Below the pieces are notes generated by a model. That model saw only the letters and a program-made list of their open reading frames with translations, was not told where the DNA came from and searched no databases. This document shows, piece after piece, positions 46,664-51,526 of a DNA stretch of 64,000 bases. The position numbers and the translations under genes were made by a program. Source of the DNA: Blastocatellia bacterium (GTDB lineage: Bacteria; Acidobacteriota; Blastocatellia; UBA7656); contig CAVXWP010000012.1 of the NCBI GenBank assembly GCA_963765495.1, positions 1-64,000 of the forward strand. The letters run 5' to 3'. How positions within the stretch are numbered: position 1 is the first letter of the stretch; each line of letters begins with the position of its first letter.

Positions 46664-47956
46664 TTACATGCCGCCGCGTTTGTTGAAAAGGCGAAAGGCG
46701 GTCGTGCGAATTACATCGGGAATATTCTTGTTTTTAGAGAGTACGCGCAGGTCGCGCGTTTGAATACGATTGATGAAACCCAGGCTGATCGATATTGGAG
46801 TGCGCGGATTGCGGACCAGATTATGCACTACCACATAAGATCGGGTCCATGCGCGACTGTGACCTATCTGTCTCAGCACCTCTTCGGGAACCGTCCTGAT
46901 CGAAGCGATGCTTTCGACCTCGGTGTCGGTCAAACGCGGATTGCGCAGGACGGCGGAAGCTACTATGCGGTTCGGGTCACGGACCAGAATCAACCTGGCC
47001 TCTCGCGTTCCCTTTATCGCAAGCATTACGCGGTCCTTGATACTCATCAAAGCGATTCGTTGAAAGACGGGCATCCGCTCAGGCAAAGAGTATCCTTCTT
47101 CGCTCCCCATCTCTTTTATTATCTCATCTACGTTGAATTGCTCGTCGGGAGTGGGTGGGACCAGATTAAATGGACCAAACTCGGTTTCGTATTCGGAGAA
47201 GATTAAGGCATCCTGCTCTGCATCCAATCCTTCTTCGATCAGCCCGAGACGCATCAGGTCTTCTATGCCTTCGATAAGGACGCGGGGGCCTGTGTCTGCG
47301 CTGGCAACGCGTTCGGCCTCGGCCTGTGTGCGCGCCCGTTGTTCTTCGGCAACCATCTGCGCGCCAAATTCTTTCTCGAAGAATTCCTGACGGACCTCGT
47401 TTGCGCGGCGTTCGGCTTCGGGCGTCCGGCGCGGATTGGCGAGAATCGCTTCTATAATTTCGGGCGAGCGAATCAGGCTCTGCTGCTTGAGCGATATCGT
47501 TTCGATGATCTGAGGATCGGGGCTTGCGGCTGCGAGTTGGGCCAGGGCTCCGTCCGGCGTCGAATGATTGAAGATTACAGTCTCGACCAGTTGGCGATTA
47601 GCACGCGGCCACAGACACAGGAATCCGAGCACATCAGCGCTTGATTGCGGGTCTGCGGCAAGCTCGATAAAGGAATTGGGATCGAGCCCGTCAACCGTTG
47701 TGGCCGCGATGTCGCGAATCTCCTGGCTCTCATCCGAGAGAAGCGCCACGAGTGCCTGAAGCATCTCTTCGGTTGTAAGCGGAACTATCCCACGGGCAGC
47801 CGCCAGCTTCATCGTCTGCGGAGCCTTGCCCGATACTATTGCTTCTATGATCTTGCTGGAAATGACTATTACTCCCGGTCTGACTGGCGTTCGATTGCAA
47901 AAGGCTATTTGTCTGGCTTTAAGGCAAAGCAAGCTTACTATAATCCGGTTGGGCAT
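46664..47956 (-). CDS. Conserved hypothetical helical-repeat protein
   Basis: KLAAARG, ILANP..P, LILVRDPNRIV..AVLRNP, LVRNPRTP repeats; true start probably near 47870. Confidence 0.75.
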   Translation of the reverse strand: MPNRIIVSLLCLKARQIAFCNRTPVRPGVIVISSKIIEAIVSGKAPQTMKLAAARGIVPLTTEEMLQALVALLSDESQEIRDIAATTVDGLDPNSFIELAADPQSSADVLGFLCLWPRANRQLVETVIFNHSTPDGALAQLAAASPDPQIIETISLKQQSLIRSPEIIEAILANPRRTPEAERRANEVRQEFFEKEFGAQMVAEEQRARTQAEAERVASADTGPRVLIEGIEDLMRLGLIEEGLDAEQDALIFSEYETEFGPFNLVPPTPDEQFNVDEIIKEMGSEEGYSLPERMPVFQRIALMSIKDRVMLAIKGTREARLILVRDPNRIVASAVLRNPRLTDTEVESIASIRTVPEEVLRQIGHSRAWTRSYVVVHNLVRNPRTPISISLGFINRIQTRDLRVLSKNKNIPDVIRTTAFRLFNKRGGM

Positions 47957-48001
47957 TCAATTACTTTTCCTCGCCGCCCCGAACCTGACAAAAGCTAATT
48001 A

Positions 48002-48030
48002 TTGACAAGAAATACCCCTCATATTAGACT
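48002..48030 (+). promoter_or_regulatory. Sigma70-type promoter for the riboswitch-transglycosylase transcript
   Basis: TTGACA, 17 bp, TAGACT. Confidence 0.75.
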
Positions 48031-48061
48031 GTCAGGGTCGTAATAAGTTGTTTTGAACTGA

Positions 48062-48268
48062 TACCGATAAAGGCACACCAGGAGCGATCCTGGGTCGCAA
48101 AGCCAAGGCCTTTTGAGGGATGAGGGATGAGGGATGAGTGATGAAAAGGATTTTGAGGAAACATTCCAGTAATTGGTTCAACCCATTTACTGGCTCGCGT
48201 CTTTAGAGTCTTTTTCATCCCTCATCCCTCATCCCTCATCCCTCCGGAGGATGTCTGGCCGCCGAAGT
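48062..48268 (+). ncRNA. c-di-GMP-I (GEMM) riboswitch with a long insertion in P3
   Basis: CG-ATAAA-GGC-ACA-CCAGGA-GCGA-TCCTGG-GTC-GC-AAA-GCCA ... TGGC-CGCCGAA reproduces P1, P2 with GNRA loop, the AAA junction, P3 and the G20/C92 equivalents. Confidence 0.8.
48115..48244. repeat. Heptamer inverted-repeat element (GAGGGAT)x4 ... (ATCCCTC)x4
   Basis: 36-bp stem 48115-48150 / 48209-48244 with one mismatch and one G.U. Confidence 0.9.
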
Positions 48269-48426
48269 CGAGGTTGAAAACGGCTCCCTCCCGGGTTTTC
48301 AACTCCGCCTGGTTATAGTTCCCCGATGTAGCGAGTCTTGAAATTCGCTTTCAACAAACGGCATCGCAAGTCCCTGCTTTTGCGCTGCCTTTGGCTAAAC
48401 ATCTAGCCCCAAGTATCGGAGGAGAT

Positions 48427-49284
48427 ATGAGGACTCTTATAATCTTGCTCGCAGTGATTCTGGTTGGAGTCACGACGAGCGAAGCTCGCGCGCAGGAAGC
48501 GAGCGAATCTTTTAATGCCGAGGCTGCCGCAGTCCTGAAGCCCACGCCTATGATGGTCGCTTACGGTAACGCGGCTCCGGTTGAGAAAGAGAAAAACAAG
48601 TTACCCGCCACGCCGGACGGCAAAGCAGGATTGGCAAAGGATGGCGCGGGAAAAGATGTTGCCGGAAAAGTCGCCACGGGGAAACCCGATGAAGCAGGCA
48701 CTCAAGCTCCGACTGCTCCGCCGCAACAGCCGGTCATTTTGTCGGCCGCCCGCTCAAATACGCAATCATCGAATGTCCCGCTCCAATCTACGGGCAATCC
48801 CGCCTATGACGACCTGGTGATGAAGGCGGCGGCTCGCCACGGCGTAGACCCGAACCTCATCTTTTCGGTCATGCATCAGGAATCGGGATTTAATCCCCGC
48901 GCCCGTTCCTACAAAGGCGCGTCGGGGCTTATGCAGTTGATGCCGGCGACGGCGCGCCGCTTTGGCGTGACCAATATCTTCGACCCGGCACAAAACATTG
49001 ACGCGGGAGCCCGTTATCTTCGACTCCTGCTCGATATGTTCGACGACGATGTAGAGCTTGCGCTTGCGGGCTACAACGCGGGTGAAAACGCCGTGGTCAA
49101 ATCGGGATTCCGCGTTCCGCGTTATCGAGAGACTCAGGATTACGTGCGTATAATTTCATCCAGATACGGGTCGGATAAGCACAGGGGAAACAAGAAAACC
49201 CCGGCCGGTCCCGTAAAGCCTTCGGCCCCGGCAGCCGTCGCCTTTGGCGCGGGGGCAAGCAGTCGTCTTTCAAACAATTACTGA
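48427..49284 (+). CDS. Exported SLT-domain lytic transglycosylase
   Basis: HQESGFNP.A.S.KGA.GLMQLMP.TA; ALAGYNAG; ETQDYV; GGAGG site. Confidence 0.93.
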   Translation: MRTLIILLAVILVGVTTSEARAQEASESFNAEAAAVLKPTPMMVAYGNAAPVEKEKNKLPATPDGKAGLAKDGAGKDVAGKVATGKPDEAGTQAPTAPPQQPVILSAARSNTQSSNVPLQSTGNPAYDDLVMKAAARHGVDPNLIFSVMHQESGFNPRARSYKGASGLMQLMPATARRFGVTNIFDPAQNIDAGARYLRLLLDMFDDDVELALAGYNAGENAVVKSGFRVPRYRETQDYVRIISSRYGSDKHRGNKKTPAGPVKPSAPAAVAFGAGASSRLSNNY

Positions 49285-49465
49285 GCAACGTATGCTTCCC
49301 CCAAAAGGCGCGGAGAGAGCAGAGTCAAGGCCCGGCTCGTCTCCGCGCTTTCGCCGTCTGTCCTTCTCCCGGCCTCTTGATATAGACTGCAAAAAGCGTT
49401 ACGGCTATAATGCAGGCTTGAATTAGGGGTGGCCCTCTAAAAATCCCCCGCATCGGCTGATCGTT

Positions 49466-51526
49466 ATGCGCAAATCACCACGCAACAAATTAGTAGTAGG
49501 CGTGATTGTCACTGCGCTGGTTTTTTGTCTTTCGGCCCGGCCTACGCTAAACGCGGCTGACCCGGAAGCCTCATCCGCGCACAGCCCGCGTTCGCTTGCC
49601 GAAAACCTGTTCCAGTACGCGACCGGGCTCAAGAAGGCGCTACACGACCGACCGCTTGAAGAGCGGAGCGAAAGCGACTATCTTCGCGCCCTTGACGCAT
49701 ACGGACAGGTAATCAGGCTCAACACCGACTCATTTTTTTCCGCCGAATCGCTTGCGCGCCGCGCAGAACTTCAACGCGAGATCGCCGATGCTACGGGCGA
49801 TTCCGCTCTTTATCTGGAAGCCATAGAATCGTTTCGCAGAATCGTAAACGAACGCCCGCAGAGCACCTTCGTCGGAGACGCGCTGATCAACATCGCTCAA
49901 ATATATGAAGAGAATCTGCAGGACCTGGATGGCGCAGCGGCAGCCTACAAAGAGATGATCGCCCACTTCCCTTCCTCGGTGCTGGCGCGCGAGGCCAGCG
50001 CCGTGCTCGCAAGATTCGAAGCGCACCTCGGCGATCACCCCGTTGATGTTCTGGTCTCTGCCGATCAGACTCAACCAAACGCCAACAGGTTTGGGCCGGA
50101 ACGAGGGGCGCAGCTTACAAACGTGCGCAACTTCACCGGACCCGACTACGCCCGCGTGGTCATAGACCTGTCAAAGGGGGCCGAATACGCGGGCGGGCGC
50201 GCGGGCAACAATCACTTGAGCCTTCGATTGAGCGATGCTCGCATCTCGCCTTCACTCTATGGCCGCCGGTTCATCGTGAGCGAATCGAGTCTTTTGAGAA
50301 GAATAACCGTGGCCGAAGGCGCAAATAATCCTTCGACACACGCTCTCTCGGAAGGGGTGCAGATTGATTTAGAGGTCGCATCGCTTGCGGAGTATTCCAT
50401 CTTTCGGCTGTCAAACCCCGAACGCATAGTCATAGACATTCACGCCGAGGGCGCTGCCTCCGAGCCTCTTTATGTAGCGAGAGGAGGAGCGGCAAACCGA
50501 GGCGTCACCCGTCCTGCCGAAGATGCGGACGAAGAAAATTCCGCGCCCGATGCTTCATCCGGCAACGTGACGGCACGCGCGGGCAGTTCACGCGCGTGGC
50601 GCACGCAGAAACCTCTGTTTGCGCTGCCCGAAATCACCGAGCCTATATTGCCTTACGATCCATCGAGTTCGGCAAGCGGCGCAAGCGGCCAGTTAGAGGC
50701 TAAGATTGACGCAGACCTTTCGCAGACGCCCATCAAATGCATAGTGATTGATCCGGGTCACGGCGGCCACGATACGGGCACGATAAGCTCGAACGGCATG
50801 TGCGAGAAAGACCTTGTGCTCGATGTAGCGCGGCGATTAAAGGCTTATGTCAAACGGAAGTACCCGGATGTCGAAGTTATATTGACCCGCGACAGCGACC
50901 GCTTTGTAGCTCTTGAGCAGCGAACGGCGATAGCCAATTCGCGCCGGGCCGATCTGTTTATATCCATTCACGCAAACGCAAGCCCCTCGCGCGTGGCCTC
51001 CGGCGTAGAGACTTATTTCATGAGTCCCGACCGCGCGCCTGATGAAGACCTTGAGACGGCCAATCGCGAAAACACCAAAATGGCCGATGAGAAGACCGAA
51101 AAACGAGACACCAGCGTCAAGCCCATCGTCGCGAGCGTTTCGGCAGGCGGGCGCGTAGCCGCATCGCGAGAGCTTGCGCGATATATTCAAGCGGGGCTTG
51201 TTCGCGGCATAGGCGCGCAATCTCCGCGCACGGCGGCCAATCGCGGAGTGAAACACGCGCCTTTTGTCGTGCTGCTCGGAGCGGTGATGCCAAGCGTTCT
51301 TGCCGAAATCTCTTTCCTCTCAAATCCACGCGACGAAGAGTTGCTCAAGACATCCGCGTTCCGCGAGCGAATTGCGGCCTCTTTGTTTGCCGGATTGAAC
51401 TCTTACCTGAAGAAGAATCGCCCCGCCGAATCAAGAAACGACGCAAAGAATGACGCAAAGAGCGAGGCGAAAAAAGAGACGAAAAAACCTGACCCGGACA
51501 CAAAGAAAACGGGCAGCGAAGAATGA
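49466..51526 (+). CDS. N-acetylmuramoyl-L-alanine amidase (TPR + AMIN + Amidase_3)
   Basis: IDPGHGG, EKDLVL, SIHAN, LAEISF; LSNPERIVID AMIN-like strand. Confidence 0.92.
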   Translation: MRKSPRNKLVVGVIVTALVFCLSARPTLNAADPEASSAHSPRSLAENLFQYATGLKKALHDRPLEERSESDYLRALDAYGQVIRLNTDSFFSAESLARRAELQREIADATGDSALYLEAIESFRRIVNERPQSTFVGDALINIAQIYEENLQDLDGAAAAYKEMIAHFPSSVLAREASAVLARFEAHLGDHPVDVLVSADQTQPNANRFGPERGAQLTNVRNFTGPDYARVVIDLSKGAEYAGGRAGNNHLSLRLSDARISPSLYGRRFIVSESSLLRRITVAEGANNPSTHALSEGVQIDLEVASLAEYSIFRLSNPERIVIDIHAEGAASEPLYVARGGAANRGVTRPAEDADEENSAPDASSGNVTARAGSSRAWRTQKPLFALPEITEPILPYDPSSSASGASGQLEAKIDADLSQTPIKCIVIDPGHGGHDTGTISSNGMCEKDLVLDVARRLKAYVKRKYPDVEVILTRDSDRFVALEQRTAIANSRRADLFISIHANASPSRVASGVETYFMSPDRAPDEDLETANRENTKMADEKTEKRDTSVKPIVASVSAGGRVAASRELARYIQAGLVRGIGAQSPRTAANRGVKHAPFVVLLGAVMPSVLAEISFLSNPRDEELLKTSAFRERIAASLFAGLNSYLKKNRPAESRNDAKNDAKSEAKKETKKPDPDTKKTGSEE

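Follow-up and report, generated by a model that had tools for sequence, protein, structure and literature searches.

Positions 48063-48268 of the window, which is the whole stretch of 64,000 nucleotides analysed here from a Blastocatellia bacterium, a soil acidobacterium, quite likely encode a c-di-GMP-I (GEMM-I) aptamer that is interrupted at the tip of its P3 helix by a 128-nt hairpin (48116-48243). This hairpin is a copy of a repeat element found at many places in the same genome. The core of the aptamer is intact and probably still binds its ligand, with the repeat hairpin as a tolerated passenger. Table 1 gives the coordinates of the aptamer, the repeat, and the surrounding leader.

Table 1. 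Features of the riboswitch leader and of the genes that follow it (window coordinates).
Feature	Position	Strand	Details and basis
Promoter-like site	48002-48030	+	TTGACA 48002-48007, 17-nt spacer, TAGACT 48025-48030; 10/12 consensus matches
Aptamer 5' half	48063-48115	+	P1 5' strand; G-C clamp 48073-74; P2 hairpin 48078-48093 with GCGA loop; P3 5' strand 48101-48115; alignments to RF03167 and RF01051, core pattern, pair counts (n = 81)
Heptamer-armed hairpin repeat copy, 128 nt	48116-48243	.	blastn homology to other copies stops at these bounds
Repeat arms, including one flanking base per side	48115-48142; 48217-48244		GAGGGAT x3 + GAGTGAT; ATCCCTC x4
Repeat centre	~48143-48216		imperfect hairpin
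Aptamer 3' half	48244-48268 (48245-48268 without the repeat-arm base)	+	P3 3' strand; AUG bulge 48251-48253; C48260; C48262; P1 3' strand 48263-48268
Conserved platform hairpin	48266-48309	+	GUUGAAAAC 48273-48281 pairs with GUUUUCAAC 48295-48303, loop CUCCCUCCC
AGUUCCCC, local form of the (A)GUCCCC motif	48317-48324	+	alignment of 41 SLT leaders; type-B leaders
Ribosome-binding site and start codon	48418-48424; 48427-48429	+	GGAGGAG; ATG
SLT-domain lytic transglycosylase gene, 285 aa	48427-49284	+	PF01464, E 2.8e-30
N-acetylmuramoyl-L-alanine amidase gene	49466-51526	+	PF01520, E 3.4e-50; weak TPR and AMIN matches

A first-pass annotation of this DNA had described a GEMM aptamer split into two halves. 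Infernal bears this out: in a search of 501 nt, both halves (48063-48115 and 48245-48268) align end to end to the model RF03167 (model positions 1-80), the P3 loop taking up an insertion of 137 nt (36.9 bits, E 3.8e-7). The 35-nt core pattern is found with zero mismatches and is identical to the core of the relatives. The minimum free energy (MFE) fold of 48055-48310 contains P2, the downstream hairpin and a P3 helix that runs unbroken into the extension—the continuity of the two stems proposed in that annotation. Its energy amounts to -131.3 kcal/mol (z = -9.6), and 0/200 shuffles were as stable. Also the claimed equivalents of G20, A47, and C92 are present: the alignment columns place them at G48072, A48099, and C48262, which points to the c-di-GMP rather than the c-AMP-GMP type, as had been suggested. 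In the Vc2 riboswitch these are ligand-contacting residues, according to the accessible text of the source (PMC5888326).

The same architecture is found throughout a family of related leaders. Among the 53 genomes surveyed, 48/53 carry such aptamers (n = 83), which precede SLT, beta-helix, and PilM genes; pair, residue, and core-mismatch statistics refer to 81 of these. The A47 and C92 equivalents are invariant (A and C, each in 81/81), and at the G20 equivalent 80 aptamers have G and a single one (L119, genome G020) has A. Clamp pairs are formed in 81/81 aptamers. The same holds for each of the six P2 pairs, with AT/GC swaps present, while for the first P3 pair past the bulge 48 members have CG and 32 have TA (n = 81). 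The P2 loop reads GUGA in 55 family members, GCGA—as in the window copy—in 24, and GUAA in two.

On the level of the transcript, the aptamer is best explained as part of a ~390-nt leader of the SLT gene, transcribed from a conserved sigma-70-like promoter. The promoter-like site had been named before and can be read directly from the sequence; it is the sole one in 47700-48700, where shuffles give 0.5. For the 39/83 loci with at least 90 nt of upstream sequence, ATTATTGACA-17-TA(G/C)ACT recurs at a fixed distance in 19/39, all of them SLT-type leaders, and in 0/20 others. Past the aptamer follows a hairpin with the strands GTTGAAAAC (48273-48281) and GTTTTCAAC (48295-48303), whose base draws on AGU(C)G in the 3' strand of P1 and hence overlaps P1. 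Its consensus in 42 SLT-type leaders comprises 11 pairs, each formed in 37-41/42, and two leaders have CG in place of a UA pair. RNAalifold worked for this platform hairpin only and returned an empty structure for the whole SLT leader, whose variable spacer is poorly aligned. The earlier proposal of this hairpin as expression platform is thus upheld in its conservation and its overlap with P1, and is to be amended in that no terminator is involved: the hairpin is not followed by a U-tract, and an intrinsic terminator was rejected since the plus strand of 47700-48700 is devoid of terminator-like sites. Further downstream, the (A)GUCCCC motif is kept in both SLT-type and beta-helix-type leaders, and in the SLT leaders a GGAG(G) block lines up ahead of the start codon. 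As a side observation, the MFE fold pairs AGUUCCCC with the ribosome-binding region, and the whole-leader MFE partners of this site differ among orthologues; these folds were set aside as evidence. The lytic transglycosylase gene recognized at first pass holds up in the Pfam search, and a gene of the SLT family also lies downstream of 41 leaders of the same type in relatives. The 181-nt gap between the SLT and amidase genes bears a promoter-like TAGACT-17-TATAAT of its own at 49383-49411, which qualifies the possible tie of c-di-GMP to the amidase raised in the first-pass annotation.

How the switch acts on the SLT gene can be modeled tentatively. The platform hairpin just past P1 would share with it the AGUG that closes P1, and a P1 stabilized by the ligand would open the base of the platform hairpin. 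The freed 3' strand with its CUCC might then pair with the GGAGG of the ribosome-binding site, so that translation would fall when c-di-GMP is high. We regard this lowering of SLT translation as a possibility that falls somewhat short of an expectation; the anti-Shine–Dalgarno pairing of the model amounts to just 5 bp in the window copy, without clear covariation. An alternative is a Rho-dependent mechanism acting on the C-rich leader.

The inserted hairpin belongs to a repeat element with 78 loci in this genome as detected by blastn, of which 55 are 100-170 nt long. Matches to the heptamer pattern number 165 and 163, versus 0 for the reversed control. Arm polarity is always convergent, with 23 cases in which both arms are present and 0 of the opposite orientation. 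For the window copy, the first-pass annotation had described arms of four perfect units each. This is accurate for the 3' arm; the 5' arm consists of three perfect units and a deviating GAGTGAT. Since the arms are inverted heptamer arrays and the copies are many and dispersed, the element shows the terminal inverted repeats and the dispersal of a MITE (miniature inverted-repeat transposable element). A classical MITE was nevertheless rejected, as the 56 copies compared show no target-site duplication: their longest flank repeat has a mean of 0.82, versus 0.88 for mismatched flanks, and flank repeats of at least 4 nt occur in 2/56 copies, versus 3.7% of controls. Likewise rejected was an element that targets hairpin tips, as the 56 copies display no such preference and their flank complementarity (2.46 versus 2.50 of 8) is at chance.

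Three near-identical aptamers exist in this genome, and 3/3 carry the repeat element at the same spot. The earlier idea that a repeat element had landed in the P3 loop is therefore right in the repeat nature of the insert (78 loci) and in its site, and is to be revised regarding a single landing, given the three filled aptamers and the hypervariable tip in the family. More generally, the P3 fillings of one genome tend to resemble each other, with a median identity of 0.66 (n = 24), versus 0.47 between different genomes, where the 99th percentile lies at 0.73 (n = 2254). Tip lengths of paralogues are also alike in many genomes (165/165, 129/125, 124/126, and 93/95 nt). A further case is genome G009, in which the full 150-nt filling is present at two riboswitches only, with 100% and 99% identity, and the other 46 matches cover the arms only. 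Here, the evidence points to a filling that was copied between paralogous switches. The fillings probably turn over through heptamer-unit slippage, through recombination with other heptamer hairpins, and through gene conversion between paralogous aptamers via their near-identical halves.

For the three copies of the genome studied here, independent site-specific insertions into the P3 loop—in place of copying among paralogues—would be another explanation. It would draw on full-length copies of the element (arms and centre) that, unlike in G009, exist elsewhere in this genome, and on the C15 copy, whose centre differs and which does not group as sister with those of C12 and C10; C7:818605 and C15 are equally near to the C12 copy. 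However, in a tree of 54 copies the C12 and C10 copies are sisters, though their leaders differ in type. Neither a preference for hairpin tips nor a target-site duplication is seen among the 56 copies, and 78 copies in 7.3 Mb are not expected to land by chance on three loops of ~4 nt. Independent insertion is hence unlikely in our view.

In this family, the P3 tip is a hypervariable site. Its length ranges from 16 to 166 nt, with a median of 92 nt in SLT-type and beta-helix-type leaders alike, and within one genus the tip of SLT leaders alone spans 18-138 nt. Nearly all extensions form a clean hairpin. Often, the fillings are of heptamer hairpin types with further copies scattered over the genomes of the relatives tested. 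Within genus g14, the idea that the repeat load of a genome predicts its P3 length found no support: the P3 tip measures 18 nt in G013 and G057, although ATTTT-type heptamer hairpins are as numerous there as in G062 and G064. Core mismatches do not rise as P3 lengthens (Spearman -0.16, p 0.16, n = 81). Because the cores of long-P3 aptamers are as conserved as those of short-P3 aptamers, we take the hairpin to be a passenger that is tolerated and changes fast. In structural terms, it folds coaxially with P3 in the MFE fold and would prolong this helix by coaxial stacking, distal to the conserved P3 base with its AUG bulge, on which the P2 loop would dock. With the hairpin in this distal position, the aptamer should therefore still fold and bind c-di-GMP.

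Tips shorter than 50 nt are scarce (13/81), which the passenger reading alone does not explain. This scarcity, together with the shared median of the two leader types, the almost universal clean hairpin, and the similar lengths of paralogues, could speak for a long extension that is a selected working part—e.g., a near-perfect duplex cut in the manner of 23S rRNA intervening sequences by RNase III, which cleaves long perfect duplexes, or a handle for a binder of heptamer hairpins. A c-di-GMP regulon would then be coupled to mRNA processing or to a system that binds heptamer hairpins. Neither sequence nor length of the extension is conserved, though, and the core is intact in six aptamers whose tips measure 16-21 nt and which precede genes of the same types. 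The 18-nt tips of G013 and G057, in genomes with as many of these hairpins as G062 and G064, also argue against it, and we consider a working extension rather improbable. A further conceivable reading is that of a P3 tip maintained as docking place for heptamer hairpins, with paralogues kept alike by gene conversion. In that event, the long duplex may serve as an RNase III entry that sets leader or mRNA stability, or as a binding site common to hundreds of heptamer hairpins, and the whole c-di-GMP regulon (SLT, beta-helix protein, and the pilus protein PilM) would bear one handle. We give this little credence.

The length of the hairpin has consequences for the detection of the aptamer. The first-pass annotation had anticipated that standard covariance searches could overlook the switch, and Rfam indeed gives zero matches at gathering score in the window. 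On RF01051, the native sequence reaches 32.6 bits in a partial alignment (gathering score 35), a score that is confounded by the insert; its 36.9 bits on RF03167 compare with a gathering score of 59. Matches to microRNA families (mir-4788, MIR6027, MIR1507, and others), with 22-44 bits and in no case at gathering score, are due to the long hairpin only and were discarded. Orthologous leaders without the insert do exist and serve as a natural control: on RF01051, two SLT leaders that share the core but have a P3 tip of 18 nt reach 56.8 and 54.5 bits. Overall, short-P3 orthologues attain 52-57 bits on this model and are called RF01051 by clan competition. Sorted by tip length, 13/13 aptamers below 50 nt pass RF01051 (43.6-56.8 bits), as do 29/44 of those with 50-99 nt and 8/24 of those with at least 100 nt.

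The subthreshold score of the window copy might also be taken as a sign that insertion and drift have inactivated it, leaving a riboswitch relic and a constitutive SLT gene. Some local departures from the family would fit: the P3 closing pair is A.C (A48101 with C48260), where most relatives have U at 48260, and an extra C at 48269 along with a U for C in the outer P1 makes P1 weaker than the family consensus. On the other hand, A.C is common to 9/81 family members, and the 35-nt core without mismatch, the intact ligand positions, and the retained promoter, platform hairpin, and downstream motifs all speak against decay, as does the equal divergence of long-P3 and short-P3 aptamers. A relic is hence very improbable. 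Least credible is a different ligand—that of the c-AMP-GMP type or of the c-di-GMP-I-GGC variant, RF03167, which is the best-scoring Rfam model on the native sequence (36.9 versus 32.6 bits)—as column 37, G in the RF03167 consensus, is A in the window copy as in RF01051, the G20 equivalent is G and not A, and short-P3 orthologues are assigned to RF01051. Hereby, we take the name GGC to refer to a G at the A47-equivalent position and A in place of G20 to be the rule for c-AMP-GMP (GEMM-Ib). That a c-AMP-GMP variant class exists is stated in the accessible part of an earlier report (PMC7266159).

In Blastocatellia-type bacteria, an intact aptamer with a passenger hairpin would connect a lytic transglycosylase, a beta-helix protein, and PilM with c-di-GMP. 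Because RF01051 at its gathering score overlooks 32/83 family aptamers, which all have one conserved core in common, the c-di-GMP regulons of Acidobacteria are probably under-called, and searches that permit long P3 insertions would recover such switches. For RNA design and folding, the family indicates that GEMM-I accommodates a duplex of 16-166 nt at this position with the core still constrained. As an orthologous and datable insertion point, the P3 tip might furthermore serve as a gauge for the gain, loss, slippage, and paralogue copying of heptamer hairpins.

Compared with the canonical c-di-GMP-I riboswitch (RF01051, Vc2 of Vibrio cholerae), the aptamer of the window has in common the three-helix junction, the GNRA loop on P2, the G20/A47/C92 equivalents, and the position in a 5' leader with envelope or motility-type genes downstream, and its short-P3 orthologues pass the gathering score. 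It differs by the 128-nt repeat hairpin at the P3 tip, by a native sequence below the gathering score, and by a platform that is a non-terminator hairpin overlapping P1. Our search of the literature on riboswitches, on c-di-GMP-I in Acidobacteria, and on inserted repeats yielded no account of a repeat that lies within a helix of a riboswitch. There are several partial parallels. Intervening sequences of 23S rRNA are extra hairpins at helix tips of a conserved RNA whose function is kept. They are excised by RNase III; for the hairpin of the aptamer, no sign of processing is seen.

A regulatory parallel is the BOX element between two T-box riboswitches in the pneumococcal trp leader, where regulation is apparently retained, as far as the accessible text describes it (Croucher et al. 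2011, PMC3049150). Also here, a dispersed hairpin-forming repeat is co-transcribed within a riboswitch-controlled leader; however, it lies between two complete aptamers and not inside a helix, and it is a single locus instead of a family-wide hypervariable site. With regard to the repeat itself, heptamer arrays of Xanthomonas (GGGAATC) and Nostoc (GGGGA(T/C)T) are dispersed, mostly intergenic, often convergent, and capable of forming stem-loops (Rehm et al. 2015, PMC4692102). They resemble the elements described here in their tandem 7-nt arms, their dispersal, and their convergent polarity. The unit sequence is different, the focus of that work is on G-quadruplexes, and its accessible part does not report placement within a structured RNA.

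A similar case is the P6b element of the group I intron in Nostoc tRNA-Leu(UAA), a peripheral stem-loop made of complementary seven-base repeats on a conserved core (PMC4476775). Its length differs among strains by repeat number and extra insertions, and its heptamers are grouped into Class I (TDNGATT) and Class II (NNTGAGT), as given in the accessible part of that paper (PMC4476775). Two heptamers seen in relatives fit these motifs: TTGGATT (from GGATTTT) matches Class I and CCTGAGT matches Class II. In contrast, the host RNA there is a self-splicing cyanobacterial intron and not a ligand-sensing riboswitch, and the accessible text does not describe a link to dispersed genome copies or copying between paralogues (PMC4476775). 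The heptamer-filled P3 parallels the Nostoc P6b case in a different phylum.

To judge from its sequence, the stretch 48063–48268 is a real c-di-GMP-I riboswitch in front of the SLT gene. A reading of 47800–48700 bears out the anatomy proposed in the first-pass annotation—promoter, split aptamer, heptamer arms, and downstream SLT gene—with one correction: the four ATCCCTC units of the 3' arm stand, while the 5' arm ends its count at three perfect units plus one GAGTGAT, and not at four perfect ones. The stem continuous with P3 and the further hairpin 3' of the aptamer that had been proposed both appear in the MFE fold of 48055–48310, which consists of P2, one continuous P3 including the extension, and that hairpin (−131.3 kcal/mol, z = −9.6; none of 200 shuffles matches it).

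Features of the riboswitch leader and of the genes that follow it, in window coordinates
Feature	Position	Strand	Remark
Promoter-like TTGACA-17-TAGACT	48002–48030	+	Sole such site in 47700–48700; shuffles give 0.5
Aptamer start ACCGAUAAAGGCACACCAGGAGCGAUCCUGGGUCGCAAAGCCAAGGCC	48063	+	About 30 nt 3' of the promoter-like site
5' arm, GAGGGAT units	48115–48142		Three perfect, one GAGTGAT
Centre	between the two arms		74 nt, imperfect palindrome
3' arm, four ATCCCTC units	48217–48244		
Aptamer continuation CGGAGGAUGUCUGGCCGCCGAAG	after the 3' arm, to 48267		
SLT-domain gene	48427–49284	+	PF01464, 2.8e-30
Amidase_3 protein gene	49466–51526	+	Next after the SLT gene

It had been anticipated that covariance searches could miss this switch, and indeed the whole window returns no Rfam match at gathering scores. 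With an E-value threshold, an Infernal search of 47950–48450 aligns 48063–48267 over the whole length of RF03167, the c-di-GMP-I-GGC model (columns 1–80), with 137 nt inserted in the P3 loop and 36.9 bits (E 3.8e-7) versus a gathering score of 59. The c-di-GMP-I model RF01051 aligns partially, with 32.6 bits versus 35. The GGC identity is ruled out because the window aptamer bears an A, as RF01051 does, at the column where the RF03167 consensus is G. MicroRNA-family matches in the same search reflect the long hairpin only. Orthologous leaders without the insert were found in relatives: in two SLT leaders, L125 and L046, the core is the same, the P3 tip measures 18 nt, and RF01051 gives 56.8 and 54.5 bits, respectively.

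The genome (7.3 Mb, 17 contigs) holds four GEMM-I-like aptamers. Those of the window and of contigs C10 and C15 share about 87% identity, confined to the aptamer, and in all three the heptamer hairpin occupies an identical position in P3. The fourth, on contig C9 (L008, G000:C9:614725-614815), has a P3 that is plain and short, and its core diverges more (29.2 bits on RF01051). A 35-nt pattern of the aptamer 5' half, allowing at most two mismatches, retrieved all 83 sites of the family survey, in 48 of 53 genomes (reversed control 0). Tip length was taken as the distance from this conserved half to the conserved 3' half (AUGWCUGGYURCCGAAGUGA), which could be measured at 81 sites; the exceptions are L060, where part of the 3' motif is deleted, and L078, which stops at a contig end. 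The tips span 16–166 nt in a continuous range—146 nt in the window—and within one genus (g14) the tip of the SLT leader goes from 18 to 138 nt. By RNAfold, nearly all fillings are a single long hairpin. The arms of many are short tandem repeats differing by genome (GAGGGAT/GAAGGAT, GGATTTT, AAGGCAA/AAAGTAA, GATGAAT, or AGAAAAT-like), and some fillings are non-repetitive. The window tip with its dispersed heptamer-armed hairpin is one case of a family-wide, fast-changing P3 tip. Of the earlier proposal of a repeat hairpin inserted in P3, the site and the repeat nature hold; the lone landing does not, as C10 and C15 share the hairpin and the tip varies throughout the family.

The aptamer core is conserved. 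In the Vibrio cholerae type example Vc2, G20 pairs with one ligand guanine and C92 with the other, while A47 makes a backbone contact (PMC5888326, in excerpt). The equivalents named in the first-pass annotation are present by alignment columns as G48072, A48099, and C48262. Across 81 measured aptamers, these positions are G in 80 and A in one, A in 81, and C in 81, respectively. All 81 form the six P2 pairs, three of which show AT/GC swaps; past the AUG bulge, the first pair in P3 is CG in 48 aptamers and TA in 32; and the P2 loops read GUGA (55), GCGA (24), or GUAA (2). The single A at the G20 equivalent (1/81) belongs to L119 (G020:C628:5370-6764), upstream of an SLT gene, where AAAGCACACC replaces AAGGCACACC; the substitution may reflect a change in specificity of the c-AMP-GMP type, or else a mere mutation.

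Mismatches to the family consensus in the 3' half, which is independent of site finding, do not rise with P3 length (Spearman −0.16, p 0.16, n = 81), with means of 2.69, 2.27, and 2.08 for tips of <50, 50–99, and ≥100 nt. The blemishes of the window aptamer are an A·C at the P3 closing pair (common to 9/81), one additional C at 48269, and, in outer P1, U instead of C. We infer that the window switch still works. For annotation, RF01051 at its gathering score was run over all 83 sites: 51 pass and 32 are missed, with passes at 13/13 tips below 50 nt, 29/44 of 50–99 nt, and 8/24 of at least 100 nt (L060, a pass, and L078, missed, enter the totals only, their tips being unmeasurable). Alignments span both halves at 41/83 sites, and the remaining passes are partial, with 35–41 bits.

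By blastn with 48040–48320, homology elsewhere in the genome is limited to 48116–48243. This 128-nt element occurs at 78 loci, 55 of them 100–170 nt long, and a 17-nt pattern of two and a half units gives 165 + 163 matches (reversed control 0). In the C10 copy (G000:C10:136476-136590), the 5' arm has four heptamer units and the 3' arm two, which leaves an internal loop and looks like one-arm slippage of repeat units. Heptamer types from the P3 tips of relatives are likewise dispersed across their own genomes, in the types and genomes tested: GATTTTGGATTTTNGATTT has 22–149 matches per strand in five genomes (control 0–3), AAAGKY 89/80 in G009 and 122/123 in G046 (its control is uninformative in G067), and GARGGAT 94/89 in G015, 210/207 in G041, and 334/343 in G001, with just 7/8 in G005.

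Chance landing of 78 copies in 7.3 Mb cannot account for hits on three loops of a few nucleotides. The element is not a classical MITE, since the flanks of 56 full-length copies show no target-site duplication (0.82 vs 0.88 in the control). Flank complementarity at these copies is not above that of mismatched flanks (2.46 vs 2.50 of 8), and therefore the element is not generally drawn to hairpin tips; the riboswitch copies themselves hold ranks 1, 5, and 6. Nor is tip occupancy forced by the repeat load of a genome: G013 and G057 keep an 18-nt tip despite ATTTT-type arrays (59/56 and 83/103) as numerous as in G062 and G064 (50/53 and 46/52), where tips measure 120–127 nt, and G050 combines three short tips with almost no such arrays.

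Within a genome, paralogous switches of different leader type frequently hold the same filling. Filling identity for same-genome pairs has a median of 0.66 (n = 24; seven pairs ≥0.76), versus 0.47 between genomes (99th percentile 0.73, n = 2254). Across 25 genomes, tip lengths of SLT-type and beta-helix-type leaders show a weak correlation (Pearson 0.48, p 0.015; Spearman 0.39, p 0.053), with p values overstated by the relatedness of these genomes. In G009, the complete 150-nt filling occurs at two riboswitches only (L066, beta-helix, and L095, SLT; 100% and 99% identity); a further 46 matches are confined to the arms of about 40 nt, and the centre of about 70 nt is found nowhere else in that genome. 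Because the full filling, centre included, is so restricted, the sequences point to copying between the paralogous aptamers via their near-identical halves. In G041, the paralogues L103 and L075 agree in the outer GARGGAT element and in one side hairpin, and differ in the orientation of the innermost nested segment. A tree of 54 element copies has C12 (the window copy) and C10 as sisters and C15 elsewhere, but is weak because orientation is ambiguous for 25/54.

All SLT-type leaders have, right after P1, a hairpin AGUG-A-RGUUGAA ... UUCAACU-C-C-RCU, whose loop contains CUCCC. Each of the 11 consensus pairs is present in 37–41 of 42 leaders, with one UA-to-CG swap in two leaders. A U-tract after it is absent, and a plus-strand terminator scan of 47700–48700 finds none. 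Two motifs are also conserved across SLT leaders: (A)GUCCCC at 48317–48324, 3' of the hairpin and shared with beta-helix leaders, and AGCCCC at 48405–48410, just 5' of the ribosome-binding site. The four bottom hairpin pairs use the AGUG that also makes outer P1; hence, P1 and the hairpin base are mutually exclusive. The CUCCRCU strand is complementary to the ribosome-binding region over 7 bp in leaders reading AGUGGAGG and over 5 bp in the window (CUCCG/CGGAG). P1 formation would thus open the hairpin base and free CUCCRCU to pair there. As AGUG is contested and the freed strand fits, we tentatively favour translational repression at high c-di-GMP, as possible rather than probable. Rho-dependent control is a fair alternative, for which the C-rich, G-poor leader (CUCCC loop, GUCCCC, AGCCCC) speaks.

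One ORF was called downstream of each of 80 sites (Pfam, E ≤ 1e-5). At 41 it encodes SLT (PF01464), at 15 a right-handed beta-helix protein (PF13229; NosD/Pel9A-like matches in some), at five PilM (PF11104), and at one MoeA_N, this ORF being probably wrongly called; 18 lack a Pfam family, some also likely mis-called. The three gene types match three leader types, which diverge right after P1. Within the window's genome, the gene after the C10 switch encodes a beta-helix/GH28-like protein, that after C15 a protein without Pfam match, and that after the C9 aptamer a subtilase (PF00082, 1.2e-38). Among 39 loci with at least 90 nt upstream, ATTATTGACA-17-TA(G/C)ACT lies at a fixed distance in 19, all SLT-type, and in none of the other 20. 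Beta-helix-type leaders (e.g., L070, L084–L087, L098, and L099) conserve CTGTTAC(C/T)(A/G)AT about 45–60 nt 5' of the aptamer, where SLT leaders have the sigma-70-like promoter; it is possibly a different promoter type. Just 3' of the window's SLT stop codon lies an imperfect inverted repeat, GCGCGGAGA...TCTCCGCGC (about 49309–49349). The 181-nt SLT–amidase gap also contains a promoter-like TAGACT-17-TATAAT (10/12, 49383–49411), from which the amidase may be transcribed on its own.

C-di-GMP-I riboswitches are already well known, and a literature search covering few subscription journals returned nothing on repeats within the helix of a riboswitch and nothing on GEMM-I in Acidobacteria. The pneumococcal BOX repeat differs in that it sits between two T-boxes and not inside one, according to the portion of PMC3049150 consulted. 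Heptamer arrays in convergent pairs have been described (PMC4692102, in part): the convergent arrangement of the Xanthomonas GGGAATC arrays equals the polarity here, as all P3 fillings counted run from unit array to complement array (23 both-arm cases, opposite 0). Nearest to the present case is the P6b stem-loop of the Nostoc tRNA-Leu intron, which, in the extract of PMC4476775, is built of seven-base motifs (TDNGATT or NNTGAGT) and differs in length among strains—and two heptamers from relatives here fit these very motifs.
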